A stretch of 61,727 nucleotides of DNA, the filler included, from Bonamia ostreae (Eukaryota), in NCBI GenBank assembly GCA_040357525.1. It is 14 parts of 14 records of this genome, joined end to end, with 100 filler letters (N's around TTAATTAATTAA, not from the genome) between each part and the next. Parts side by side here need not be neighbours in the genome. Positions count along the whole stretch, not along the records: positions 31,066 to 35,371 come from JBDODL010000329.1; positions 35,472 to 39,774 come from JBDODL010000330.1; 12 more parts are not named here. One strand, given 5' to 3'. Below the pieces are notes generated by a model. The model did not search any database and was not told where the DNA came from. It saw only the letters and a program-made list of their open reading frames with translations. Below are positions 4,360 through 58,951 of this stretch, one piece after another; the stretch's first letter is position 1, and every line of letters starts with the position of its first letter. Position numbers and translations under genes: made by a program.

Positions 4360-4459
4360 NNNNNNNNNNNNNNNNNNNNNNNNNNNNNNNNNNNNNNNNN
4401 NNNTTAATTAATTAANNNNNNNNNNNNNNNNNNNNNNNNNNNNNNNNNNNNNNNNNNNN
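4360..4459. other. Artificial contig linker N44-TTAATTAATTAA-N44 (recurs at about 8817, 13266, 17707, 22134, 26560, 30966, 35371, 39775, 44175, 48568, 52961, 57353)
   Basis: Identical six-frame stop 12-mer inside N runs; intervening contigs shrink steadily (4357, 4349, 4341, 4327, 4326, 4306 nt...). Confidence 0.97.
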
Positions 4460-5814: not shown

Positions 5815-7414
5815 TTATTTGGAAGAATTATCGTTGTGACCGATCGAAGCAGCATAATTGAGGGGGTTCATGGACGGATATGAAAAGTTATCGTCGCCTG
5901 GAATCGATATTCCCTGAGGCGGATTTGGCATATTCACTTTTCGCTTTTCGATCGGGTCATAATAAGATTTCGGCAAACTTTTCATTCCTGGCGGCATTGC
6001 AACTTTTTTTTTAATTATTTTTTAATTTGGACTTCTTTTTATAAAATTTGTAATTAAAATTTAGCTTTTAAAAACAATTGTAAGTTGGTTCAATGTTTTG
6101 ATTATTAGTAGTTTTCGACCAGTTGATTTTATATTTTGTGTCGCCGATGATCAACTGGCCATTTAACTTTTCAATCGCTTCTTCAGCATCTTCTCTGTTA
6201 CCAAAAGTTACAAATCCGCATCCTTTGTCAGGTTTCAGTGCGATTTTTGTTATCTCGCCGTATTTTTTCAGCATTTTGCTATCAATTTATTAAGATTTTT
6301 TGTTCAATTTTTCGTTCAATCGACAACAAAATCACAAAAAAAGTCAATTTTACGATTTTTGGCTCAATCGACAAAATAAAATAAAAAGTCAATTTTGCAA
6401 TTTTTCGTTCAAAATCTAAAAAAAAATCAATTTTACGATTTTTCGTTCAAAATAAAAAAAAATCAATTTTACGATTTTTCGTTCAAAATAAAAAAAATCA
6501 ATTTTAGGATTTTTGGCTCAATCGACAAAATAAAAAAAAGTCAATTTTGCAACTTTTCGTTCAAAATCACAAAAATCAAACCTCAAATCATTTTCTTCAG
6601 TGCTCCCATCGACCCCGCCAACAAAAATGGTCGTTATGTTTTTATCCGTCGGCGGCTCAATGTCACTTCTCTCGTTGTCGTCTCCTCTGCGAGCCCGCAA
6701 CAACTTCTTCGCCACCGGATCGTCTACGCCGTAAAATCTGTTTTTTATGTTTTGATTTCTCAGCTCTTCCGGATATTCATCTCTTTCATGTCTTTTTATT
6801 TGCAATTTATTTTAGCACTAATTCCTAAAAATTGCAATTGCCGAAACCGATAAGGGCAATCGCTCCCTCTTTTGCACTCTCCTTTTTGGAAGAAAGAACA
6901 CAAATGCGGCAGATTGCGCGTGTAATAAGGCCGTTTTCTCGATAAACTGGAAAGAAAGGCCGAAGCTTTCGAATATGGATTCGATCCTTCCGGAAGTCCC
7001 AGAGCAGCGGCAGCTCCTCCGGCTTCCATTTTGCTCTCGAGATTTTCGAACTGGAAATCTCTGTTTGGGACGTTTACGGGAATGTCGATTTTCGCTGTTT
7101 CCGCCATCGCTTTGTCTCTGACCTGGACGGGCAAGCCTTAAAACTCGAAAAAAATAACCGAACTGAAGATCGAGAACACAAGTTTGGCAGACATTTTTGA
7201 GCTGTGCGCATGTTCTACAAATTTGTGTCTTTTTGAATCGGGCTTTGACGCCCGGTCGCCAGCGATAAATTGTAAACGGCCGATCGCATATTTTACATGA
7301 TTGTCCAAAGTCCGTGCGAGTCTTTAGTTTGAGCTTTAAAACCATCCGCAGAAACGGATTGTCGCCCAGACATGTTTCGCAGAGTATTGGGAAGTCGATT
7401 TTGTCGTCGCCCAT
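5815..7414 (-). CDS. RBM22: Pre-mRNA splicing factor RBM22/Slt11, 6 exons
   Basis: FPILCETCLGDNPFLRM/TRTDFGQSCKIC, CVLDLQFGLPVQVRD, CCCH finger [20 protein letters not shown], RRM; introns of 21, 22, about 56, 303 and about 70 nt. Confidence 0.95.
6295..6580. repeat. Intronic tandem repeat (units of about 33-45 nt) in RBM22
   Basis: Recurring aaaatcaattttacgatttttcgttcaaaat. Confidence 0.85.
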
Positions 7415-7518
7415 TATGTTTAGGATATTGTATATATGAGAATAAGATAATAAGATTTAGCAAACATATTTAGCTTTTTTCGTAAACTGTTTTATCGAGA
7501 AATCAAATTATTTTGAAA

Positions 7519-22233: not shown

Positions 22234-24181
22234 TGTTTTGTCATCGATCACGACACTGTTCGAGTTGCCACAAATCGCTTTCCACACTTCTTGGTCGTTA
22301 TCGAGATCTTCTCTGGTCTGGGAAAAGTACCCCAAACGCACTTCTTTCCCGATCCGGATCACCCCTCTCTCCGGCTGGAGCTCCCTTGTCATTAGCCGGA
22401 AAAGAGTCGTTTTGCCCGACCCGTTCTCCCCGACCACACCTTTTGTTGAACTGAGTCGAACCGAAAACGGCGTCTTTTGTGAGCGAAAAGCTGGCGCCTC
22501 TGAACACCGCTTTGTCTTCGAACGAGAAATGGAGGTCTTCGACATCGATCACCGTTTTGCCGAGCAACGGGCTCTTCGGGATCAAGAGTTTTTCCAGCGA
22601 ACTGGTGGATATCTTGTGTTTGCTCAGTCCATCCTTCCTTTTCTCGAGCGTTTTCAGCTTCTTTTTCTGCTGCGTCGTTTTCCTTGGCGCGGAGTGAAGG
22701 CTCTCTAGTTCCTTCTCTACTTTTTTCGTTTTGCTGGCGAGAAGTCTAATTTGCGAATCAAAACCTCTTCTCATCCGCGACCCGATTTCGCTTCGATCGC
22801 GCCCAGTCGCTAAAATTGCCTCGGAAGAACAACGCCTTCCCTGCGTCGATTTCGACGATCCATTCCGACACGGCGTCGACGAAATTGCGGTCGTGCGAGA
22901 CGAAGAAGACCTTTTAATTTAATTGCTGGCTGAAACAGTTCCGGTGTACTTTCGCAGATATCGCTCGAGCCACTCGATCGCCCAAATGTCCAAGTGGTTC
23001 GTCGGCTCGTCCAAGAAGAGGATGTCCGGCCTTGATAGCAGCACTCCGCAGAAAGCGACTTTGTGGCGTTGCCCCTTTAAGTGGATTTTTAAACGCCGGA
23101 CAGATTCTTCATTTTGGTGTCTTTGTGCGGGCATTTCAGCTTTTTGAGGATGTCGTCGATATCGAATTCCAGTTTCCAGCAGCCCAACAGATCAATCTGC
23201 TTTCCTATCGTTTCTTGTCGTTGCATGAGAGACTCCACGTCTGTGTTTTCCGTAGCGAATTCCAAGGTCGTTTCTTTGTATTCTCTTAATAGATCGAATT
23301 GCCTTTTCAGAACTAAAATTTTTAGAACTTAAACAGATCGCAAATTTCAATTTTTCAAATTGAAAGAATTTCGATTTGGATCAAATAAAAAGTTTTACTC
23401 TACTGGGAGACAATTTTTATAAATCAACTACAAAGAATTATCGACAAACCCTCCAACGCATTGTAGCCACTTTGGTTTGCGCCTGGAAGCGCAGACATTC
23501 AAAGGCGTATGCGTAAATGGTAATTTTTAAACTTAAGGGAGCATTGCGAATGGCAGAGTTAGCACTCAATCTTAAGCTTCGCAAGTTTTATCAATTATAC
23601 GGTTATTTGGTAAAGTTTGTTTTTGCAATGTTTGTTTCATTTATTAAAAGGTCGATCCGAAAAAATAATTAACGGTCGCTGAAACAAATGTCTGAAGCTA
23701 ATTTTGATCGACTTTTAGAAACTTGTTTTCAGATAATCTAAAATCGTCTCCTTTTCATCAAACACGATTTCTTGAGAATGGTGCGCCACAGTCGTAGAGG
23801 GGTCTCCGAATTTGAGGGTCCCTTCAAAATTTTTGTCCTTTTTCGCCAAAATCCGCATCAACGTCGACTTGCCAGATCCGTTCACTCCCGTGATCGCCAC
23901 TTTGCTGCCTAAAATTTTCCTACGATGATTTTACCTCTGACGCACCTGAAAGACACGTCTTTCAGAATGTAGAAAGTTTCTTCGTCTTCGAATTTTTTCG
24001 AAATCGATTCTGCTTTCAGGACAAAGTCACTCTCCTTAAATTGCATTGCGCTCCTTTTGGCCATTCCCTCCGGAGCAAGCGTCGCGACGGGCCTAAAAAA
24101 ACGCAACAAGCACTTCGCTCTCGCATGTCCGAAAAGTTTCCTTGGCACCGAAACTACAAACCTCGTAGCCGACATTGCCAT
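22234..24181 (-). CDS. ABC-F ATPase, EttA-like, with N-terminal presequence (5' part)
   Basis: GVNGSGKST, LSGGQ, LDEPTNHLD, SHDR, second Walker A GENGSGKTT, YFSQTREDL; introns of 19-26 nt plus one of 410 nt. Confidence 0.88.
23450..23582. ncRNA. Candidate structured intronic RNA (two hairpins; possibly H/ACA snoRNA)
   Basis: GC-richer island in intron 23313-23722; stems ACGCAT/ATGCGT, GTTTGCGC/GCGCAGAC, CTTAAG/CTTAAG. Confidence 0.4.
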
Positions 24182-24266: not shown

Positions 24267-26484
24267 ATGGCTTTCAAAGTTGTCAGAGAAGCGAAACGGA
24301 CCATCCCACCGCTCCCCAAAACAGGTAACAGCCCTTTTCACCCAAAGCGCGTGGCTTCGGGATCCACATAGACGGCACCACCGCGGGCGGAAAGAGACTG
24401 GTTTCGGACCAACAATGTGCTAGATCTACACCAACGGCCGGTTCGTCGTGATCAGAAGCCTCGAAGACCAGTTCGAAGCGACCGTCTTCGGCGGCCACCA
24501 ATGCAACGTCAACGTCGCCAAGTTCAGCCCGAACGGCGAGTGGGTCGCCTCGGGCGACTGCCAGGGCAACGTCATCGTCTGGGGCGCGCGCACACAGACG
24601 GCCAAGAACCAGTTGCGCGCCAACAACAGGTTTCCTCGCCGCCAACCAAAGCGTCCTGGACATCTCGTGGGGCGCGGACAACAGCCAGATCATCGCCGCG
24701 GGAGACGGCGGCGACGGCTACTTCGCGAAAGTGTTCAGAATCGACTCCTCGAACTCCATCGGCGAGATCTCCGGCCACTCGAAGAAGATCCTCTCCTGCG
24801 CCGTAAAGCCCTCGAAGCCCCACTTCATCGCGACCGCGTCGGAGGACTTCAGCGTCAACACCTACAAAGGCGTCCCCTACCGTCACCAGAAGACGCAGCG
24901 GCTCTTCAAGAACTACCCGAACTGCGTCCGCTACAACAGAGCGGGCGACGCCTTCGCGGCGGTGGGCAGCGACAGAAGGATTTGCCTCTTTGGGGGCGAA
25001 GGAGAGCTGCTGAAGCAAGTCGACGCGAAGGCGGAGGGCGCGCACAAGGGCTCCATCTACTCGTGCTGCTTCAGCCCGGACGGCGCGAAGCTGCTCACCT
25101 CGAGCGGCGACAAGACGCTCAAAGTGTGGGACGCGGCGTCCCTCTCGTGCGAGCACACCTTCAGCGCGGGCGGCCGCGTCGAGGACATGCAGGTTTCGTG
25201 TCTGTGGCTGGAAGGCTTCATCGTCTCCGTCTCGCTGTCCGGCGCCATCAACTTCTTCGAGGAAGGAGAAGGCGCGCCGAGCAGGACTTGGAACGTTTCG
25301 CTTTTTACAAAAGGGCCACCAAGACGCGATCAGGAGCATCGCGGTGCACCCGTCGGGGAAGAGGCTGTTCTCGGCGGGGATCGATGGGAAGATTGTGGGA
25401 TGGGACTTGGAGCGCTCTGTCTCGACGTTTTTCAGCGGCGGCCACGACGGAAAGCCGATCGTAGCGATGGACGTTTCTTCGGATGGAGACAAAATCGTAA
25501 TTTTGCAAGATTTTAGTTTTCGGTCGGGTTCGACGACAACTTTTGTGTGTCCGATGTCGAAGACAAGAAAACTGAGTAAAATTTATTTTTTAAAACAAAA
25601 TAAAAATTTTAGTAAAAATTTAACGAATTAAGAACTTTTAAAAAAATTTAAAGTCGATTTAAAGATTTTAACGAACAAAAATTTTAGTAAAAATTTAACG
25701 AATTAAGAACTTTTAAAAAAATTTAAAGTCGATTTAAAGATTTTAACGAACAAAAATTTATTAAAAATTTAATGAAATAAAAACTTCAATAAAGATTTCT
25801 GTCAAATTTGGATGGACAACCGACTTGCATCGCGAGCAGCAAAACAAGCCCAACCATTCTTGCAGCCGCGACAGTCAAAAACACGCTTTTCTATACGACA
25901 AACGGAAGCTCTTTCAAATCCGAAAAACTGGAAAGCAGAACAAACACAATCGCGTTTTCGCCCAAAAAGAACGATCTGGCCGTCGGCGGAGAAGACAAAA
26001 AAGTCCGCATTTATTTTGTCAGCGAAACCGGATTGGATTTAAAGCTAACTATCGATAAGCACATTTCGGAGATAACTTTTGTCGGATATTCCGAAAATGG
26101 CGACTACTTGATAACTGCTGGCAAACAAGGGAAGATCTTTGTCTGGGACACGTCTTCGGACTTTTCCAAGCCGCTCAACAGCAGAGGATGGAAGTTCCAC
26201 AACAGCGTCGTCACGAGCGCGGCGTGCAAGCCCGGTTTCGAAGTGGTCGCCACCGGTTCTAAAGACGAGCAGATAATCAAATGGTCTAATCCGACCAAAG
26301 GAAACCAGGCCAAGAGAGCGTTCGTAAACCGTTTTTAGTGTTCTTTTGCAAACTTTTCATTGTTTGTGCTAATATTTTTTAAAAAGCTGCGCATTTATCC
26401 GGTGTGAATATCTTGAAAACGTTGGATGAATCGACCTTTGTCTCGGCCGGCGAAGACAAATGCATCAGAATCTGGGAGTTCTAA
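24267..26484 (+). CDS. WDR1: Actin-interacting protein 1 (WD repeat), 8 exons
   Basis: VAKFSPNGEWVASGD..G.V.VW, GEISGHSK.I, ATASEDF, AHKGSIY, SGDKTLKVWD, WKFHNS. Confidence 0.93.
25604..25770. repeat. Intronic tandem duplication (about 75 nt x2) in WDR1
   Basis: aaaattttagtaaaaatttaacgaattaagaac... seen twice. Confidence 0.9.
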
Positions 26485-26721: not shown

Positions 26722-27705
26722 TCAAAGCATCCGACTTTTGGCGTCCACATAACACTTTTTAAACTCGTCGAACAACGCCAAAACTGCTGCTCCCGCGACT
26801 CCCCTCAAAATGTTGGCCGTCGCTCCCTTCATAAAAGCGGTCGCCCCCTCGTTCCTCCAAATCTTCCTGGCGCAGTCGATCGAACTGCTGTAGTTCACTC
26901 CGGTCCCCGAAGTCATCATCATCCTCCTCCTGATCGTGTCCACTGGATACGACAACAACCCCGCCGTCATCGTCACGACGTAACCGAGTCTTGAAATCAC
27001 AAAAGTTACAGGAAATTGAAGAGCAGATTCGAATTGTCGCCGAGCAGCATCGGCTTCAGCGTGTCATAGAGACCGAAGTAGAACCCGCGGTAGATCATTA
27101 TCCCCGTGATCGAAATGGCGAAGCCGCGGTACAGCCCAACAATGCCGTCGGACGCCATCGTCTTTCTGTAGACGTCGAACAGCCCGTTGAACTGCCGCGC
27201 GCCGCCTTTTTTGGAGCTCTTGGCGTCGTTGGCGAGGCGCGTCCGGGCGTAGTCGAGGGAATAGACGAAGCAAAGCGAAATGGAGCCTGCCAATCCGCCG
27301 GAGAGAATGTTTTTGGAGAACTTGACATAATAATTGTCATCTTTCGCGGACTTTAAGAGGAGCTTAATTTTGTCTTTAAAGGCGAAATTGAGCGCTTGCG
27401 TAGGAAAGTAGCGGATGACGTTGGCGGAATTGCCTCTCCAGAAGGAAACGAGTCCTTCGGATTGGAAAGTGCGTCTGAAGCAATCGAATGAGTTCTAAAC
27501 AGGAAGGAATGGCAACTTTGTAAGGCTTTGAAATAATGTTGTTCTTCAACATTTCGCCTTGGTTTTGTACCATCAATTTGACTCGTTCGATTGGCGCTGC
27601 GATCGTTTTCGAGATGATCGCAGCTGCTCCGCTCAGACAAAAATTCTCGGCCATGCTTAATTTGACCTCTTTTTTGGAACTCTCGGGAGCGGGTTTCGCG
27701 GACAT
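26722..27705 (-). CDS. AAC: Mitochondrial ADP/ATP carrier, 3 exons
   Basis: [36 protein letters not shown] signature; introns of 22 and 21 nt. Confidence 0.97.
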
Positions 27706-29537: not shown

Positions 29538-30880
29538 GTGGTCAAGTTGTTAAAAACAAACAAAACATTTAAAATCAATTCTTTACAAATAGATAAAAGA
29601 TCGTCATCGCTTGAAAGCCCCGAAATAATTCCGGGAGAAAAGATAGCAGAAACGGCGAAATTCTTAAACCAAAATTCTTTAACAAAAATAACAGAAAAAT
29701 CAATTCGAAAAACAAACTTTTGCCAACAAAAAGACAAAAGTTTCTGCAGACGAATGGTAAAACCAGACGAAAGAGAAAACACATCAAACGACAATAAAAA
29801 AACCGATCATAAAAACAATACAGAGAATCTTTTAAGCTCGAAACAAAAAGCTTCAAATACGAAAAAATCGGACAAAAATCCTCTCATAACAGGAAATTTT
29901 GAAACTAGAAGAAACATTTTGTCGAATTTCAGAGAACGCAAAAATAAAATCAATTATTTGATCAAAACAGTTTCTAAAATTTTCGCAAAACGAATTCTAG
30001 AAATTTTCCAAAAATATTTGCAAACCAAAATTATCAAGTAACATTAAATTAAACAAAACATACCAAAATTATTATATCGATAAAGCTTTACAACGGGTCA
30101 AACCGAAAATAAGTAAAACTTTTGTACAAACCAATTTTAAAATTTTAAATCGATGATTCTATACAAACAAATAAACTAAAAACTATTTTTATGATTTTGA
30201 AGGAAAATGAAGAGAGCTCTAAAAACTCGGAAAGTTTTAAAAAAAAATTTAGAACGAAGCGAGCAAATCGAAAATACGCCTTGGTTCATCATCTCCGATC
30301 CAAGCGCCGAGAGACCGTATTTTTACAATGCGAAAAAAGCAGATACCTTCTGGAAATTGCCAGACGAAATCAAAAAGAAATATAAAGCGGAAATTTTGGA
30401 CATCTACAATAAACTCAGTCGAAACAAAGGAAAGGAAGTGGTGTCACCGGAAAATGTAATAAAAGAAGACGAATCATTGGGGGAAGAGCGACATCCAAAG
30501 GAAGCAAACTCCGAAGCGAATGGAGAGTTACCGTTGAAAAAGAGTCGTCAAATAGGCAGCTACGAATGGTGGGAGATCGACGACCCCAATTCGAAGTATT
30601 TGTATTTCTTCAATGCGCTTAAGAGCAAGACTTATTGGGATGTCCCACTGGAGGTGTACCGCATGTACCAATCCATGGAACTTTCACATGTTTTGATACA
30701 AAATTTGTTATAGAAACCGACTCTAAATATGCCGCCGGTGCTAAAAAAAGCAAAACATGTGCAGAACAATATGAACATACACCAAAACTCTAAAAATGTA
30801 TTTTCGAAAGACTTTAATGAATATAATCCGTCGTGGAGGAAGTCTTTTAGAAAGAACAAGGAAGAGATTAAAAAGGTTTT
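29538..30880 (+). CDS. Protein with two WW domains, boundaries uncertain
   Basis: W...DP..RPYFYN....TFWKLP and WWEIDDP...YFFN....TYWDVP. Confidence 0.7.
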
Positions 30881-31094
30881 TTTTGCAAAATTGTTTACTA
30901 AAAGTAATTTGTTTATCAATAACACTTTTGGTGATTTTATTTTTTGCGATTTATTTTTACTGATTNNNNNNNNNNNNNNNNNNNNNNNNNNNNNNNNNNN
31001 NNNNNNNNNTTAATTAATTAANNNNNNNNNNNNNNNNNNNNNNNNNNNNNNNNNNNNNNNNNNNNTTTTTATAAAAAATGGAAAAATTCAGTTG

Positions 31095-31710
31095 TTATAT
31101 CAAAACCGCTGACAAAGGTTGTCCATTAGCTTTGATCGAATCGATGACCGATTTCGCGTTTTCGATTTCTTTCGCGTTGCAAAGCGCCCTGACCAAATAA
31201 TAATAATGTTTCTGATTTGGGTTGAAGCCGTTTATCCCCAAAAAGTAAATAAAGTCTCGCACGAGAGCAAACTTGTTTTCGTTTGCGGCTTTATTTAAGA
31301 ATTCGTTCACTTTTTCGGCGTCCAAAAGCTTGTCTTCAGAGAGCAATTGCTTGAAGCTGTCGAGCATTTCCGGCAAACTTTTTTTCTCGAAAGACGCTTT
31401 GTTTTTAGTTTGCGACAGAGGCTTGTCGAGATCGAGCCCCGAGAGCAGAAATCTGAACGCCATCTTCAACGAAAATGAAAATGCCAAAATGAACTTTGTT
31501 CGCCGTTTTCGTGTTCAGAGTTAAAGGGATGTCTTCGATTTTGGAGATGGAAGTTGACGGAAGAGAAATGTCTACCGTTTCCGGGCTAAATTTTAAAGTT
31601 TCAAACTTTATTTTCTTCCGAGTGAAATCGTTCTTGGCGAGTTTGCAGAACAATCTGTTCTGCTTCGTTTTCACAAACACATATGCCATGTTTTTTAATG
31701 TGGACGCCAT
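31095..31710 (-). CDS. Pentatricopeptide-repeat protein, probable mitochondrial (5' part)
   Basis: GFNPNQKHYYYLVRALCNAKEIENAKSVIDSIKANG PPR motif; basic N-terminus. Confidence 0.75.
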
Positions 31711-32162
31711 TTTACAAATTCGGTTTTTAGCTTTAAGCTAATTAATATATTTTTTCGTTAATCTTTATTGACTAAAAATGCCGTTTTTGTTGTTATTTTA
31801 ATTTTTGGCGAATGCAACATTTTTTTAACAAAATTTGAATTTTCAAAATTTATTTTCGGTTAAAATTTCAACGAACAAAAGGTCAATGCAATAACAATAT
31901 TTCTTTTAATTTCCAATTTACAATTTTGGGAATAACAATCTTTCAATTTCCAATTTGGGAATTTTCTGTGCTTCGTTTTCGAAGATATGGCATTTTTTCA
32001 TTTTATCCATTATAGAAAAACTCAGCTTTTGAATAATTTTACAATTATTTAAATTTTTCGAAAATTCAAAATTTAGTTTTGAAACAAATTTAACTCGAAA
32101 TTTTTAAAATTTAGTTTTTGAATTAACTTAATTGGCATAATCGCTCTTTCAAAATTTTGCAA

Positions 32163-33294
32163 ATGTTTAATGATTCAGGATTTTATGAAAATAAACTGAT
32201 CAAAACTGTACTTGTTGTCAGACCCATTCCTCCAAGCTGTAACGAAATTTTGCTGAACGCATTATTTAGAAAATTTAAAGCTGTAAATGTGCAGAAATTA
32301 AACCCAAAATCGAGAATGGTCAATAAATATTTTTTAAAATTAATTACGCAACAAATTTAGAGGTCAAAAGTTTTTGTGACGTTCAAAAACGCGCTCGACG
32401 CCGAAACAGCCAAAATGCACTTTAACGGATTATTCATTTTCAACCGAAAACTGACCGCATTTTTTTACAAAAAAAGAATTAAACTGTGTAGCGATATTTC
32501 GGTCGAGGATTATTTGCGTTCAGAGTGGTTTACCAAATTGTTTTAAATAGCAAAGACGACTCTGTGAAACTGAAACCGCCGCCACTGACAGATGAAATCC
32601 TGCTGCGCATTCAAAACGTGTTAAAGGCAAACCGAGTTATTTACAAAAAAGTGGCAAAACTCTTTTTTGAACACAAAATCAGTTTTGTTCCTCCTCGAGC
32701 GCCTCCCCCGCTATTGCCCCCGCTCACCGAGAATCAACTAGACCAAATGAGGGAGAAAATTGACAGGGACATGTCATCAGACGAAAGTGAAATGGGAGAC
32801 GGGGACGCAATCGACGACAAACAAAAGTCCAAAAAGATCAAAATCAGAAAACTCGGCGTTAGAAAAAGCAATATTAGGAAGAGAAAGCTTTCCGAACTAG
32901 TCGAAAATTTTGACTATATTTCCGAAAAGGAAATTTGGGAAGACAAGAAGCTCTACAAAATTTTTCTGAAGCAGAAGGATTACGGCATCGAAGACGAACT
33001 TAGTCTAGCCACAAAGACGCTTTATGTCAGCAACGTTTCCGAGACGACGACGGAAAAGCATTTGCAGAAAATTATAGAAAAATTGTTCTCCAAAAAAGCT
33101 CTTGTGAAAATCGACATTTTCAAGGAAGGCTTTTTAAAGGGCGTTGCTTTTATCGCGTTTGCCGAGAAGCACTTTGCGATGCTCGCTCGCCGCTTTTTGA
33201 ACCGGATGGTTCTAAACGGCCAAGCCATTTTTGTTGTTTATTTGAGAACTTTTAGGACTTTAAGAAAGCCGAACAGCTTCAAGCGCTAAAATAA
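32163..33294 (+). CDS. RNPC3: U11/U12 snRNP 65K protein-like, 4 exons
   Basis: N-terminal RRM, PPP..EILLRIQNVL..YKKV helix, Pro-rich stretch, SSDESE, C-terminal RRM TLYVSNV...IFKEGFLKGVAFIAF...VLNGQAIFVDF. Confidence 0.75.
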
Positions 33295-33337
33295 ATTTTG
33301 TATGTTTAATTTTTGTGGAAAGTTGAAACACGGAAAT

Positions 33338-33766
33338 TTATTTGTCGCTTAAAAAAATTGATTTGGGCAAAAGTTTGTTTACGGGAACATAAATTTCCAA
33401 GTTTTCTCTTTTCATCAGACTTTCGGATTTAATGCCGTCGGAAAGAGTGACAGAGAACAAACAGTTTTTGGTGGTCCCAAAAACATCGTCGACTTTCCCG
33501 ACCAGAGACTTTTTGTCCATATAGACCGGGGCGTTGAAATAAGGCACTTTTTCGTTCGTCAGTTTGCACACTAGCGAGCCCTCGCAGTCATGGACTACTG
33601 TTCCAAGTTGGATTTTCGGCGCGTTTTCGTCAAAATTCCTTCTGTTGTTCCGTCCTCGAAACGACCCCCGTCCGCGGCCGCGCTTGAAATTGGATCCGCC
33701 TCTTCCTCTCGCGGAGCGGCCACTTCCTCTGTTCGAATACCCCCTGTTGTTATTATATATCGCCAT
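33338..33766 (-). CDS. GAR1: H/ACA snoRNP protein GAR1
   Basis: RGG N-terminus; H.CEG.LVCK, KVPYFNAPVY, GKVDDVFG, KLLP. Confidence 0.95.
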   Translation of the reverse strand: MAIYNNNRGYSNRGSGRSARGRGGSNFKRGRGRGSFRGRNNRRNFDENAPKIQLGTVVHDCEGSLVCKLTNEKVPYFNAPVYMDKKSLVGKVDDVFGTTKNCLFSVTLSDGIKSESLMKRENLEIYVPVNKLLPKSIFLSDK

Positions 33767-33821
33767 CGAAATTTCACTTTTTGTCTAAATTTTTTAATCT
33801 GAAGAGTCTGCGATATATCGC

Positions 33822-35032
33822 ATGTTCTTAAAAAGGCTATTTCCGCCAAAGTGTTCCTTTCATTTCTCAAAAATGGATCCCAGCAAAAAGACAAACTCTG
33901 AAGCCCTTCTCAAGAAACTCGAAAACCTAAAAATTTCTTTCAATCTGGTAAACCACGAACCGGTGACTTCTTGCAAAGAGCATTCCGATGCTCTGAACAA
34001 CACAAATCTCGCTTTCTGCAAAAATTTGCTAATTCTGAACAAAAAATCGAAAAAGCTTTCTCTGCTCGTTCTTCCCGCCGCTTCAAACTTTTCGTTCAAG
34101 CAAATCGGCTCCGTCTTGGTTTTCCTCTTTTACCTTCTCGCTGAACAAAGGGAGTCAACGGGAACCATCTCCGACTCGCAAACGACGCCTTGTTAGAAGA
34201 AACGCTGAAGGTGGCACGAGGCGCCCTGAACCCGTTTTCTGTAATGTTCGATTCCGACGACAGAGTCGAACTGATCATCGACAAAGTTTTTCCAACTCAA
34301 AAAAGCCCATCGCGAAAGAAAAGCGCCTTCTGGCCATTCACCCGATGCACAACGACGCATCGATACTCGTAAAGTTCGGCGACCTGAAAACGTTCTTGGA
34401 AGATTTGAAGTTTTTTTGTAAACGAAAGCAAACCGTTCACCGAAATCTCTTTTGGAGATAAAATCGCTTCCGAGACAAAACTGGAAAATTTGAAAAAGAC
34501 GAAGAACAGAAAGGCTTTGGCCGAAAACGACAAGAAAGGAATCTCGTGTCGGAAAACGGAAAACTTTTCTCAGTGGTATTCCGAGTTGGTGACAAAATCG
34601 TTTCATCGAAAACTTTAGTGAGATGGTCGACTACTACGACGTCAGCGGTTGCTACATCCTCAGACCAAACAGCTGCTTCATCTGGAACCGAATAAAGAGT
34701 TTCTTCGACGAAGAGCTGTCCACCCGAGGCGTCGAAGAAGCCTACTTCCCCGTAACTTTTAGAAACATAAAGATGTTCGTCACCAAAACAGCTTTGGAGG
34801 CCGAGGAATCCCATATCGAAGGCTTCAAACCTGAAGTGGCGTGGGTCACCCGCAGCGGAGAAAGCGAACTGAGCGTTCCGCTGGCGATCCGACCGACCTC
34901 CGAAACGATAATGTATCCGTCTTTCAAAAACTGGGTTCGCTCGCACCGGGACCTCCCTCTTCGAATCGTTTGATCTTCATAAAATAGAACCAATGGTCCA
35001 ACGTGGTCCGCTGGGAATTCAAAAATCCCACC
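33822..35032 (+). CDS. ProRS: Prolyl-tRNA synthetase with N-terminal YbaK/ProXp editing domain (5' part, at least 7 exons)
   Basis: CKNL, GALNPF, HPMHN editing domain; [41 protein letters not shown]. Confidence 0.95.
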
Positions 35033-35811
35033 GTTTTTACAATTGTTTATTGTCTATCGAGTCTTCAATGTTTCACGGACAGTGCGCAACTTTTAATTTT
35101 AGATAAACATGTCAGATTTAAGTTCAATCGTAGTAATTCTGTCACTGTCAACATCTCCCTTCAGCTTTAATTATATTGAGCTGTTTGTCTCTGAATGTCT
35201 GAGCTATCGGTGCCAACCGAAGCAAAGGCCAATTTGCGTTAAATTGAATGTCTGAAACAACATGTTTTCAAAAAATTGCTGAGACGACATATTTTCAAAT
35301 GAGACATTTGAAAAAAATGAGACGACAGCAAAATAGCTCCGCAAAATAAAAAAAGTGATTTAAGTCGCAAANNNNNNNNNNNNNNNNNNNNNNNNNNNNN
35401 NNNNNNNNNNNNNNNTTAATTAATTAANNNNNNNNNNNNNNNNNNNNNNNNNNNNNNNNNNNNNNNNNNNNGGAGCAGACACCCCAAAGATGCGCCACTT
35501 CCCTCACTTGTATTCGGCCCAAGTGAGTGAACAAAGTTTGAAACCAGTTATTTCCGACTAAAGTTGAATAGAATAAAAACTAAACCCAAAAACACATTTA
35601 GCACACGCGATTATGTCCCTTCCAGACATAATGCAAGGCAGAGCTTGACATTGAATAGGAAAAGGTTCTTGATAATCATATTTTTTGAGCACGTCATAAA
35701 CTTTTTCAGGCAACCCTTTTATGTCACAATAAAAAATAATTTAAATTGATTTTCAAATTTATCAAATTTGACCGAATAAAAATGGAGTTAATTAATATTT
35801 TTGTAAAAAAC

Positions 35812-46473: not shown

Positions 46474-47663
46474 ATGGAAATCTCAACCGATCATTCAGAA
46501 GAAATAGTTTAATTTTATGACATTTAGAACGACGCTCAATTTGATTATTACGGCAAAGCCATCGCAACTGCTTCATCTGACAAATCTGTCAAAATTTACC
46601 AAGTTGGGGATAACAACATCAATCTTTTGACAACTCTGACAGGGCATTTTTCATAAAATATTTGTTAAATTTAACACAAAACACGTTCAATATCGTCAAA
46701 AAAATTGCAAAATGGACAATTTTTAAATTTAGTCACAATGGCCCAGTTTGGAGAGTTTCATGGTCATATCCCAAATTTGGCAAAATAATCGCATCTTGTG
46801 GTTACGCACGCCAAATAATGGTTTGGAACGAATCAAGTCCCGGAAAATGGGATTTGATTTTAAGAGACACTTCATTCGAAGATCCAGTTAACGACATCAA
46901 ATTCGCTCCGGTCACCGATAACATTTTTATCGCAGCCGTTTCTTCTGGCGGCGATTTATTTTCTTATAATTACGACCGTTTTCCAAAAATTAAATTATTT
47001 TTCGACTAAAAACGTAAATCGATAAAATCCAAAAAACGACAAATCTTCGAAAACAAAACTTTCCACGTTGTAAAAACGTGGAAAGTTTATACAATTTTGC
47101 GTTCCTCCCTCACGCCGTTTCTCATCAAGAGACGGCGAATTCCCAAAAAAGCGACTAAATTTTATATAAAATGTCGAAAATCCCAAAAACAAAAAGCGAC
47201 AGAAAACAAATGGAACAAAAAAGCGTTTCCAATCCATTGTTTGGCCGCAAACGCAATATCTTTTTCGCCTGAAAACGGTGAGAAAGGACCGCGTGTTGTA
47301 ACGGGGGGAAGCGACGGAATCGTCAAATTTTGGGAATTCGATAAAACAGAAAATTTAATCGAGGGAAAACATACTCCTCGGAATGAGCATTCGGGCAGTG
47401 TCACTGACGTTGCTTGGTCTCCTTCTACTTGTGGTAACAAAGGAACAGTTGCATCGTGTTCAGAAGATAGGACTGTGAAGATCTGGCAAAACGACAGCGA
47501 ATGGGCTGTTTCTGCGACAGTCGAACTTAATCTTCCGGTCTGCTCGGTTTCTTGGTCGCCGCTCGGAGATCTTTTGGCGGCGACTTTAACGAATGGAGAA
47601 GTGAAAATGGTTCAACAAACCGATAACGGGGAATGGAATGTGAAAAGTTCCAAAGAAGAATAA
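46474..47663 (+). CDS. SEC13: COPII/nuclear pore WD40 protein SEC13, 4 exons
   Basis: DAQFDYYGK.IATASSDKSVKI, GHNGPVWRVSW.YPKFG, DVAWSP, ASCSEDRTVKIW. Confidence 0.93.
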
Positions 47664-51245: not shown

Positions 51246-52870
51246 TTATTTTAATTTTCGTAATTTTCTTCCTTCAATTTTGCGTTCTTTCTTTTGTTTA
51301 ATAAATTCTTTTCTCTTTTCCATTTTCTCTTCTCTTCTTTCTCTTTTTGTCTTTTTACTTTCTTTCTTTAAAATTTCATTAAATTTCGTTTTGTTATTTA
51401 TTTTTGGACTTTTTTTATTTATCAATTTCGTTTTGTTATTTATTTTTGGACTTTTTTTATTTATCAATTTCGTTTTGTNNNNNNNNNNNNNNNNNNNNNN
51501 NNNNNNNNNNNNNNNNNNNNNNNNNNNNNNNNNNNNNNNNNNNNNNNNNNNNNNNNNNNNNNNNNNNNNNNNNNNNNNTTGTAAATTTCTTTTTGTTATT
51601 ATTAATCGAATTGCTATTTTTTGACTTTTCAATTTTCATTTTGTGAAGTCGAATTTTCCTAAAATTGTTTTTTAAAACCTCGCGTCTTCAACAGAAAATT
51701 CAACTTGCAACGAATATTTTGGATCATTAGAAATGTCTCTTATCGCATTCAACGAATCTTTGTGTTCTTCAAATTCGACAAATCCGAATCTTTTTGTCAA
51801 AAAATTTTATAAAATTTACTAAAAAACTAAATTTGAATAAAAAAATTTTCATCAAAATTGCTAAAAAAACTAAATTTGAATAAAAAAATTTTATAAAATT
51901 TGCAAAAAAAAACTAAATTTGAATAAAAAAATTTTATAAAAATTACAAAAAAAAAGCTAAATTTGAATAAAAAAATTTTCATCAAATTTGCTAAAAAGAA
52001 CTAAATTTGAATAAAAAAATTTTATAAAAATTACAAAAAAAACTAAATTTGAATAAAAAAATTTTATAAAAATTACAAAAAAAAACTAAATTTGAATAAA
52101 AAAATTTTCACCAAAATTGATAAAAAACTAAATTTGAATAAAAATATTTTCATCAAAATTGCTAAAAAAACTAAATTTGAATAAAAAAATTTTCACCAAA
52201 ATTGATAAAAAAACTAAATTTGAATAAAAATATTTTCATCAAAATTGCTAAAAAACAAAATTTGAATAAAAAAATTTTCATCAAAATTGCAAAAAAAATT
52301 AAATTTGAATAAAAAATTTTCATCAAAATTGCTAAAAATCTGAACCTTTTCGATCTAAACTTTCCAGACGAATTCAATCGCTTTCGATCTCTTACAATTT
52401 TTACTTGTTTCAAAATCGGTTTTTTGTTTACAAAATTTTCGTTTTCCTGAATAAAGTTAATATTTAGTTTTTAAATTTTTACATTTTTACTTAAAAAACA
52501 TTTCTTAATTTTTTAGCCGAATTTAAGAAAATCTGTTTTAGATCAGTTTCAGTTAATTGGACTGGAATGTTTTGGACGGAAATTCTTTTTTCTGAAATTG
52601 AAAAGTTTGGATTTTTCAGTTTTTGCATTTTCTCAACAAACGAATTTTTTCTTCTCGTCGCTATTTCCTTTTCCATTCTCTCATCAAATTGGACTAATTT
52701 TTGTTAAAATTTAGTTTTATTTGAATTGCCGTTATTCTAATTTTTAATAAAAATTTGCAAATTTTAAAGTTTGTTTTTATGAAAGACGTCCTTCTTTTGC
52801 CAAAAATAATCTTTTTTTGTCGATTTTTTGATTTTCGGTGTTTTTGCTAATTTCAAGTTCCTCTTTAGAC
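51246..52870 (-). CDS. RBM28: Nucleolar RRM protein NOP4/RBM28 (3' part)
   Basis: LFLAKEG, KLKNPNFSISEKRISVQNIP, RSKRFGFVEFEEH, VEFSVED. Confidence 0.88.
51795..52340. repeat. Intronic tandem repeat, about 43-nt unit x about 12
   Basis: ctaaatttgaataaaaaaatttt recurring at about 43-nt period. Confidence 0.95.
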
Positions 52871-58731: not shown

Positions 58732-58951
58732 ATTTCATNNNNNNNNNNNNNNNNNNNNNNNNNNNNNNNNNNNNNNNNNNNNNNNNNNNNNNNNNNNNNN
58801 NNNNNNNNNNNNNNNNNNNNNNNNNNNNNNNNNNNNNNAGAGTTCTAAACACATATAATTATAACACATTCAAAAAAAGGTTAACCATTTTTTAAGCTTA
58901 AACCTATTATATCATATTAAGGAAATAAATATAATATTAATTTTATCCAAA

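Follow-up and report, generated by a model that had tools for sequence, protein, structure and literature searches.

Introns of about 20 nucleotides, mostly with GTT(T) donors, in a 61.7-kb stretch of the Bonamia ostreae genome

Bonamia ostreae is a haplosporidian (Haplosporida, Ascetosporea, Rhizaria) that parasitizes flat oysters. We analyzed a window of 61,727 nucleotides (nt) of its genome and confirmed that genes in it are interrupted by introns of about 20 nt, most of which begin with GTT or GTTT. The genes that carry these introns encode, among others, a prolyl-tRNA synthetase (ProRS), an ABC-F ATPase, an ADP/ATP carrier (AAC), and a two-RRM protein. The window does not form a single continuous locus; in it, 14 scaffolds, descending in size from 4359 to 4275 nt, are joined by 13 identical linkers (N44-TTAATTAATTAA-N44), the first at 4360-4459 and the 12 others at sites about every 4.4 kb. 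Two further runs of 100 N (51479-51578 and 58739-58838) resemble the usual gaps within scaffolds. Several genes are truncated because they lie at the end of a segment, namely those for ProRS, ABC-F, CCT-zeta, and a DEAD-box helicase (14-373); the ProRS gene is cut at 35371 because its scaffold ends there. No tRNA genes were found within the window. The draft genome of 2024 has 12.24 Mb and 33% G+C, and the available text of its description counts 2 introns per mRNA on average and terms them "canonical" (PMC11069148).

The set that we assembled holds 24 introns, 20 of them placed by RNA contigs, homology, or the coordinates of solved structures and 4 by gene model alone. Adding the donors at 35033 and 10250, whose introns are described below, gives 26 donors. 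The RNA evidence comes from a single scaffold (31066-35371), on which we compared contigs from two DNA runs, X1 and X2, with contigs from X3, a run that we presume, as a guess, to be RNA. The X3 contigs lack segments of 21, 23, 31, 42, and 456 nt, all of which end in GT..AG on the coding strand:

31464-31494, minus strand: 31-nt intron, GTTCAT..GAAG, at the X3 joint 31463>31495 (CT..AC on the plus strand)
31586-31606, minus strand: 21-nt intron, GTTTGA..TTAG, with a gap depth of 2218/2218 in X3, 0/11.7 in X1, and 0/7.9 in X2
31723-32178, plus strand: 456-nt intron, GTTTTT..TCAG, of the two-RRM protein gene, skipped in an X3 contig
32319-32360, plus strand: 42-nt intron, GTCAAT..TTAG, skipped in an X3 contig
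32528-32550, plus strand: 23-nt intron, GTTTAC..ATAG, with an X3 gap of 2218/2218, kept in X1 and X2

X1 and X2 both cover the places of the 21- and 23-nt gaps ungapped; the other three joints are unlisted in X1 and X2. The 21-nt intron at 31586-31606 is a multiple of three in length, has no in-frame stop, and would add seven residues, yet it is missing from every X3 contig at that place. Across 31495-31721, one X3 contig joins the two minus-strand splices (31464-31494 and 31586-31606) to the plus-strand splices from 31723-32178 onward, reflecting either overlapping transcripts of two opposed genes or a contig that merges them. The two-RRM protein gene (32181-33283, plus strand, with an upstream exon ending at 31722) encodes a proline-rich linker between its RRMs. 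For the C-terminal RRM, the nearest single-RRM structure is RBM40/RNPC3 (U11/U12-65K; E = 2e-4), and generic RRM proteins score higher. On the same scaffold, an X6 RNA-seq contig (33323-33652) has 21 T before 33323, which fits the poly(A) site of a minus-strand Gar1-like gene at 33341-33784 (Pfam Gar1, E = 8e-20).

A series of tiny introns lies in the ProRS gene of this scaffold (33873-35371, plus strand):

33873-35032, plus strand: 5' part of ProRS, seven exons, with a YbaK-like domain and the start of the class II core
34119-34150, plus strand: intron 1, 32 nt, GTTTTC..AAAG, the better of 2 choices that keep the reading frame open (404.7 versus 399.3 bits)
34286-34305, plus strand: intron 2, 20 nt, GTTTTT..AAAG, best of 9 choices
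34410-34428, plus strand: intron 3, 19 nt, GTTTTT..AAAG, best of 6 choices
34600-34618, plus strand: intron 4, 19 nt, GTTTCA..TTAG, best of 13 choices, the next being 20 bits lower
34752-34772, plus strand: intron 5, 21 nt, GTAACT..AAAG, best of 10 choices, also in the public protein P0002
34968-34987, plus strand: intron 6, 20 nt, GTTTGA..ATAG, best of 2 choices, also in P0002
35033-35371, plus strand: start of intron 7, donor GTTTTT, at least 339 nt, with its acceptor beyond the scaffold end

For each intron, all nearby GT..AG pairs that leave the frame open were enumerated (2 to 13 candidates each in ProRS), and the resulting proteins were scored with a hidden Markov model (HMM) of homologues. 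The spliced ProRS translation reached 404.7 bits with the HMM of 33 full-length homologues, and all six introns were the top-scoring choice. The first-pass annotation of this DNA had claimed six short ProRS introns within 1.2 kb, and six were recovered, with lengths of 32, 20, 19, 19, 21, and 20 nt between 34119 and 34987. Intron 5 is, like the 21-nt intron at 31586-31606, a multiple of three without an in-frame stop; its retention would add seven residues and costs 13 bits. Two gap-free DNA contigs, X1 record 8 (32022-35371) and X2 record 16 (32957-35371), cross the ProRS gene, and the tiny introns are therefore present in the DNA. Two X3 contigs part from the genomic sequence, at 35029 and at 35032, and then read PFIRTREFL, the next conserved ProRS segment, which places the seventh donor at 35033.

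Three B. ostreae proteins from NCBI thread exactly onto the window, with identities to the query exon or open reading frame (ORF) of 100% for P0002 (a ProRS fragment), 94% for P0121 (an ABC protein), and 100% for P0140 (the AAC). A dicyemid source, suggested by the intron size and by an RNA run labelled "mollusc metagenome," was rejected on the strength of these matches. P0002 threads onto 34623-35167, and the exon to which it is identical is 34773-34967; over 35033-35167 it runs past the RNA-supported donor into intron sequence, and it appears to be mis-spliced. The other two proteins bear on the introns of the ABC-F and AAC genes, listed here with that of the CCT-zeta gene:

22237-24181, minus strand: ABC-F ATPase gene, truncated at the start of its scaffold, with six introns
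23909-23934, minus strand: ABC-F intron, 26 nt, GTAAAA, best by HMM, carried by P0121
23313-23722, minus strand: ABC-F intron, 410 nt, GTTTCT, best by HMM
23075-23094, minus strand: ABC-F intron, 20 nt, GTTTAA, best by HMM; its removal restores the LSGGQ signature
22911-22936, minus strand: ABC-F intron, 26 nt, GTTTCA, best by HMM
22746-22764, minus strand: ABC-F intron, 19 nt, GTTTTG, best by HMM
22440-22461, minus strand: ABC-F intron, 22 nt, GTTCGA, best by HMM
26728-27705, minus strand: AAC gene, onto which P0140 (313 aa) threads exactly with its two introns
27495-27516, minus strand: AAC intron, 22 nt, GTTGCC, best by HMM, in P0140
26990-27009, minus strand: AAC intron, 20 nt, GTAACT, best by HMM, in P0140
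9460-9530, minus strand: CCT-zeta intron, 71 nt, GTTTCC..ACAG, placed by solved-structure coordinates

All six ABC-F introns were the top choice with an HMM of 13 ABC-F proteins, two of them by a margin of just 1 to 3 bits. P0121 appears mis-spliced at 23672-23722, where it takes a 25-nt intron (23698-23722) and then meets a stop; the 410-nt intron that starts from the same donor restores the full ABC-F protein. The spliced AAC protein scored 552.7 bits with an HMM of 40 homologues, and both of its introns were best. Taken over ProRS, ABC-F, and AAC, 14 of 14 introns were the best-scoring GT..AG choice. In CCT-zeta, the intron is fixed by human chain 6qb8_z: residues 7-68 of the upstream exon align to its residues 5-67 and residues 1-157 of the downstream exon to 68-220, so that the exons are exactly contiguous, with the junction at 67|68.

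The remaining placements come from gene models or are candidates:

24353-25575, plus strand: AIP1/WDR1-like gene, four introns, gene model only
24401-24423, plus strand: AIP1-like intron, 23 nt, GTTTCG, model only
24630-24651, plus strand: AIP1-like intron, 22 nt, GTTTCC, 59% G+C, model only
25295-25313, plus strand: AIP1-like intron, 19 nt, GTTTCG, model only
25497-25516, plus strand: AIP1-like intron, 20 nt, GTAATT, model only
25576-25794, plus strand: candidate long AIP1-like intron, donor GTAAAA, without support
10250-10268, plus strand: candidate 19-nt intron, GTTAAA..TTAG, of a TPR protein gene, without homology or RNA support

An open AIP1-like ORF requires an intron at all four places, with 3 to 8 GT..AG choices at each. 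The exons that flank 24630-24651 align to residues 36-91 and 106-311 of the AIP1 chain 1nr0_A. A protein search with an AIP1-like exon returned multi-WD40 proteins only, and a search of solved structures with the exon 25314-25496 returned mostly generic WD40 chains. The exons of this gene (24353-26329, plus strand) have about 62% G+C against about 33% in the genome, far above their neighbours, which could possibly reflect high expression, biased gene conversion, or foreign origin. A 75-nt unit is repeated 2.5 times with 95% identity at 25602-25786, inside the probable long intron of the gene. For the TPR candidate, which had been offered as an example of a 19-nt intron, the donor stands, in that 10250 alone joins the two flanking ORFs; the length is ambiguous, as the acceptors 10268, 10286, and 10304 would give 19, 37, or 55 nt. 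The five other segments offered as examples, 22746-22764 and 23075-23094 on the minus strand and 34410-34428, 34600-34618, and 34968-34987 on the plus strand, were confirmed as GT..AG introns of the claimed length and as the best choices by HMM.

Segments of this kind are missing from the RNA-derived contigs and yet present in those from DNA, and their removal restores conserved proteins residue for residue. Frame-breaking insertions of 19 nt might in principle be errors, but that the segments are instead assembly frameshifts, elements excised from DNA, or places of translational bypass is barely credible: 24 of 24 end in GT..AG, the two DNA runs carry segments ungapped, the RNA-derived contigs lack five of them, and the public annotation, as seen in the threaded proteins, independently models six such short introns. 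The GT..AG count needs one qualification: for 19 introns, those found through homology or gene model, such ends had been required in the search.

The lengths form a narrow mode under 30 nt, as is characteristic of ultra-short introns. Sixteen of the 24 introns measure 19-23 nt, 18 are no longer than 26 nt, and 6 have at least 31 nt; the minimum is 19, and those outside 19-23 nt measure 26, 26, 31, 32, 42, 71, 410, and 456 nt. Lengths divisible by three are found in 4 of 24 (p = 0.06 versus one third). A purine at +3 is among the most constant features of eukaryotic introns; here, +3 is T in 19, A in 4, C in 1, and G in none of the 24, with T at +4 in 16, G at +5 in 3, and T at +6 in 9. Among the 26 donors, 21 begin with GTT, 17 with GTTT, 4 with GTA, 1 with GTC, and none with GTG. 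The donors thus do not follow the canonical GTRAGT, with only 4 purines at +3 in the 24 introns. An earlier hand count had given about 45 GTT donors among about 59 (76%), with no GTAAG or GTGAG and few G at +5; the proportion agrees with that in our separately built set, in which GTAAG and GTGAG are also absent (0/26) and +5G is rare (3/26). At the other end of the intron, -3 is A in 11, T in 11, and C in 2 of 24, giving a WAG acceptor, and an A-rich stretch lies at -9 to -7, with A at -7 in 15 of 24. On the exon side, a weak AAG|GT preference is seen, with G at -1 in 9 of 23. The U12-type donor consensus is RTATCCTT; none of the 26 donors has it, and the window holds 4 matches against 3.1 expected by chance, which is no excess.

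Base composition accounts for part of this pattern. After GT, the next base in the window is T in 47% and A in 13% of all cases, which leaves GTT by itself with no more than a modest enrichment (binomial p = 0.001 versus 0.47, and p = 0.02 versus 0.57, the share in decoy "introns"). Decoy "introns" called by a gene finder that ignores +3 to +6 also start with GTT in 19/33 to 20/36 cases. It could accordingly be argued that there is no special donor code at all and that the excess of GTT simply mirrors a T-rich, GTA-poor genome and AT-rich introns. We regard this as quite improbable. GTTT heads 16 of 24 introns against about 31% of decoy-boundary "introns," about a twofold excess (p = 3e-4), only one of the 24 introns has C or G at +3, where roughly 40% would be expected, and GTTTCC is found even on the model-only intron at 24630-24651, with its 59% G+C.

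A stricter control was given by GT..AG segments of 19-26 nt inside the exons of the same five genes (n = 103). GTTT heads 12 of the 18 real introns of this length and 8 of the 103 in-exon decoys (Fisher p = 1e-7). A or T at -3 is found in 18/18 versus 49/103, a G+C fraction of at most 0.35 in 14/18 versus 10/103 (G+C about 32% versus 52%), and AAA within the last 12 nt in 12/18 versus 17/103. Real introns were thus shown statistically to differ from the look-alikes in exons by GUUU, low G+C, an A-rich stretch 7 to 9 nt before the 3' end, and WAG.

The gene finder, a self-trained dynamic programming over codons and introns, was run with nine decoy dinucleotide pairs as control. In the 19-23 nt class, it called 19 GT..AG introns against 3 to 8 for the decoy pairs. 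With intron length capped at 50 nt, its calls numbered 36 against 25 to 42, so that the excess is confined to 19-23 nt. A softer intron scoring failed to discriminate (34 real versus 11 to 52 decoy calls in the 19-23 nt class), and, when introns up to 600 nt were allowed, the finder chained across strands. One intron that it called, 7322-7355, was ruled out by a continuous Pfam STL11_N match.

We consider it quite probable that these are genuine GT-AG spliceosomal introns, most of them shrunk to 19-23 nt with a minority of 26-456 nt. Essentially +1 to +4 of the donor would be read, and the partner that reads them would have to accept U-U at +3 and +4. The intron would be defined across its own short length by combined signals: GU, U at +3/+4, AT-richness against G+C-rich exons, the A-rich stretch, the WAG acceptor, and a preferred spacing. 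Lying about 7 nt before the acceptor and often reading ..AAC.., the A-rich stretch probably serves as the branch site. The first-pass annotation had proposed, as one option, recognition mainly through proteins or intron length, and the part about length is weakened by our data. All four supported introns of at least 71 nt (71, 410, 456, and at least 339 nt) also begin with GTTT; the donor is not tied to tiny intron length, and a sequence reader is therefore favoured over a length ruler.

Several observations weigh against this interpretation or limit it. The direct RNA evidence amounts to five introns and one donor, all on one scaffold, and X3 is presumed to be RNA. None of the six short ProRS introns is skipped in RNA contigs; they rest on homology, with public annotation in addition for two. 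X3 coverage is nil over 33802-34521, and no listed X3 contig bridges these introns, which speaks neither for nor against their splicing. GTT is already the commonest GT trinucleotide in the window (47%), and the bias is hence partly one of base composition. The sample comprises 26 donors from 61.7 kb of a 12.24-Mb assembly, with four introns model-only, and many of the introns that the gene finder called at other lengths than 19-23 nt are false. Finally, the donors are heterogeneous, with 9 of 26 departing from GTTT and 4 being GTAA-like; a relaxed signal fits them as well as a re-tuned one.

It had also been claimed that these donors cannot pair with canonical U1 and that U1 and U6 normally read +3 to +6, with an altered U1 or U6 as one of the proposed consequences. 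Twenty of the first 25 donors match at most one of the four positions +3 to +6 of GTAAGT, the complement of the canonical U1 ACUUAC. Pairing with a canonical U1 is therefore poor, and its helix would hardly extend beyond GU and a few exon bases. The reader of +3 and +4 would thus have to be something other than the canonical ACUUAC helix of U1. For U6, the claim was too strong, since the ACAGA box can accommodate U at these positions, through a U.G wobble at +3 and a U-A pair at +4, as set out in the accessible part of bioRxiv 10.1101/2022.06.08.495308, and the box is a possible reader of these donors. We compared real donors with decoy GT sites for three kinds of fit: to a GTTTGT-type complement (4.96 versus 3.65 of 9; p = 2e-7), to GTAAGT, where the difference is slight (3.92 versus 3.35; p = 0.008), and to the U6 ACAGA box (3.0 versus 2.36 of 5; p = 3e-4). 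In the window, a search with Rfam gave no match of any kind at the gathering score and 2 irrelevant ones at E <= 10; no small nuclear RNA (snRNA) gene appeared at either threshold.

An altered U1 or U6 in Bonamia is plausible, and the idea of an altered U1 is not exotic, because Entamoeba provides a direct precedent: its donors are GUUUGU, and its U1 has co-evolved to read ACAAAC (bioRxiv 10.1101/2022.06.08.495308, available text; Davis et al. 2007 cited there). If the 5' end of the Bonamia U1 were changed at the same positions, placing A opposite +3 and +4 (..AAAC..), GUUU would be read by ordinary U1 pairing. The far better fit of real donors to the GTTTGT-type complement points in this direction, as does GTTT on 4 of 4 long introns, which need sequence-based recognition. 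The spliceosome is also not a minimal one. The window encodes a SART1/Snu66 family protein (59029-60719, plus strand; Pfam E = 4e-11 and 9e-16), RBM22/Slt11 (6071-7456, minus strand; STL11_N, E = 9e-20, plus an RRM), and a protein with two WW domains (30201-30710, plus strand) whose three best structure matches are PRPF40A and Prp40, at a weak E of 0.014 to 0.1; the Bonamia spliceosome is therefore less stripped than that of mikrocytids. An ORF at 47010-47660, suspected to encode U5-40K, proved to be Sec13-like instead. We nevertheless hold a co-evolved U1 to be somewhat unlikely. The +5G is kept in 97-98% of Entamoeba donors and found in only 3 of 26 here, and of the 9 donors that are not GTTT, the 4 GTAA-like ones would mismatch such a U1.

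Alternatively, the canonical ACUUAC of U1 may have been kept and its mismatches tolerated, so that U1 pairs with GU and a few exon bases while intron definition, U1C or other proteins, and later U6 and U5 do the rest. We rate this slightly above a co-evolved U1, though below an even chance. It accords with the heterogeneous donors, with the little information that they hold past +4, and with the persisting weak AAG|GT preference (-1 G in 9/23). Yeasts, Giardia, and Trichomonas keep a standard U1 despite a pyrimidine at +4 (bioRxiv 10.1101/2022.06.08.495308, in part), and myxobolids and Dicyema combine a reduced 5' signal with short introns (PMC13644364, in part). However, T at +3 is actively preferred (T 19, A 4; C and G together 1/24 versus about 40% of GT sites), whereas a merely relaxed site should drift toward composition, and no organism cited in the accessible part of bioRxiv 10.1101/2022.06.08.495308 pairs a canonical U1 with U at +3.

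Loss of U1, with the 5' splice site recognized directly by U6, U5, and Prp8, is suspected in another group of this class, the mikrocytids. Mikrocytos and Paramikrocytos, with introns of 16-17 nt, yielded no snRNAs besides U2, U4, and U6 and just 17-19 spliceosomal proteins (PMC10245619, available text). GUUU can pair with the U6 ACAGA box, and the donors fit that box better than decoys do, as noted above. For Bonamia, we judge this loss improbable: the available text of PMC11069148 places the loss of splicing genes on the paramyxid and mikrocytid branch, not the haplosporidian one, and terms the introns of B. ostreae canonical, introns of 410-456 nt exist in Bonamia, and genes related to the tri-snRNP and NTC are present in the window. 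The idea that the first step of 5' splice-site recognition has been rewired in Bonamia, either by a U1 with A residues opposite +3/+4 or through a U1-independent route after U1 was lost, is one that we put forward tentatively, as a serious possibility a little short of an even chance.

Compared with known systems, Bonamia combines ultra-short introns and GUUU donors, each known elsewhere, without +5G and with looser donors and a tail of long introns. The mikrocytids are the closest relatives in this comparison. They belong to the same class of rhizarian parasites (Ascetosporea), have ultra-short introns in a narrow band, and presumably lack a detectable canonical reading of the 5' site by U1. 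Their introns, of 16 or 17 nt (217 and 7 of 224), are highly conserved and lie in about 180 genes, being absent from metabolic and transporter genes according to the accessible text of PMC10245619. Bonamia introns, in contrast, have a mode of 19-23 nt with none below 19 and 6 of 24 at 31 nt or more in a tail to 456, are loosely conserved in sequence with diverse donor hexamers, and occur in a transporter (AAC) and a tRNA synthetase.

Entamoeba resembles Bonamia in having U at both +3 and +4, a feature almost unknown elsewhere; in Bonamia it is present in 16 of the 24 introns, or 17 of the 26 donors. Its donors are near-invariant (88-90% GUUUGU, 97-98% GUUUGN, U at +7; bioRxiv 10.1101/2022.06.08.495308, in part), unlike those of Bonamia, in which GUUU is found in 17/26, +5G in 3/26 donors, and +6T in 9/24 introns. 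Chlorarachniophyte nucleomorphs and heterotrich ciliates, of unrelated lineages, likewise have spliceosomal GT-AG introns whose lengths cluster narrowly around 20 nt, whereas in Bonamia long introns coexist with tiny ones. Donors in both are GTA-type and are not known to be GTT-type. Nucleomorph introns measure 18-21 nt and those of heterotrichs 15-16 nt (PMC10245619, in part). Myxobolids and Dicyema japonicum, with median introns of 22-27 nt and a reduced 5' signal "GTa" (PMC13644364, in part), are animals, not rhizarians, and differ in that signal from the GTT(T) of Bonamia. A 2026 paper describes, in its available text, drastically reduced intron numbers and sizes in ascetosporeans (PMC13746701). 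In the searchable literature, with supplements and subscription journals outside its scope, we found no description of a mode of about 20 nt or of a GTTT donor in Bonamia or other haplosporidians.

The finding has practical consequences, as it affects the gene models of a listed oyster pathogen: two of the three threaded public models (P0002 and P0121) appear mis-spliced, and RNA-seq mappers at their default minimum intron length would miss such introns. In the accessible part of bioRxiv 10.1101/2022.06.08.495308, Entamoeba alone is documented to have U at +3 and +4, with a U1 changed to match. A second, unrelated GUUU lineage, in this case one without +5G and with introns of about 20 nt, would test whether splice sites and snRNAs have co-evolved repeatedly or whether U1 pairing is dispensable. 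Within Ascetosporea, the case of Bonamia may throw light on the origin of the extreme 16-nt introns found in mikrocytids. If recognition has indeed been rewired, GUUU donors would have had a second, independent origin after Entamoeba, and haplosporidians would represent a living halfway stage, with ordinary rhizarian introns on one side and, on the other, those of the mikrocytids, which are fixed at 16 nt and U1-less.

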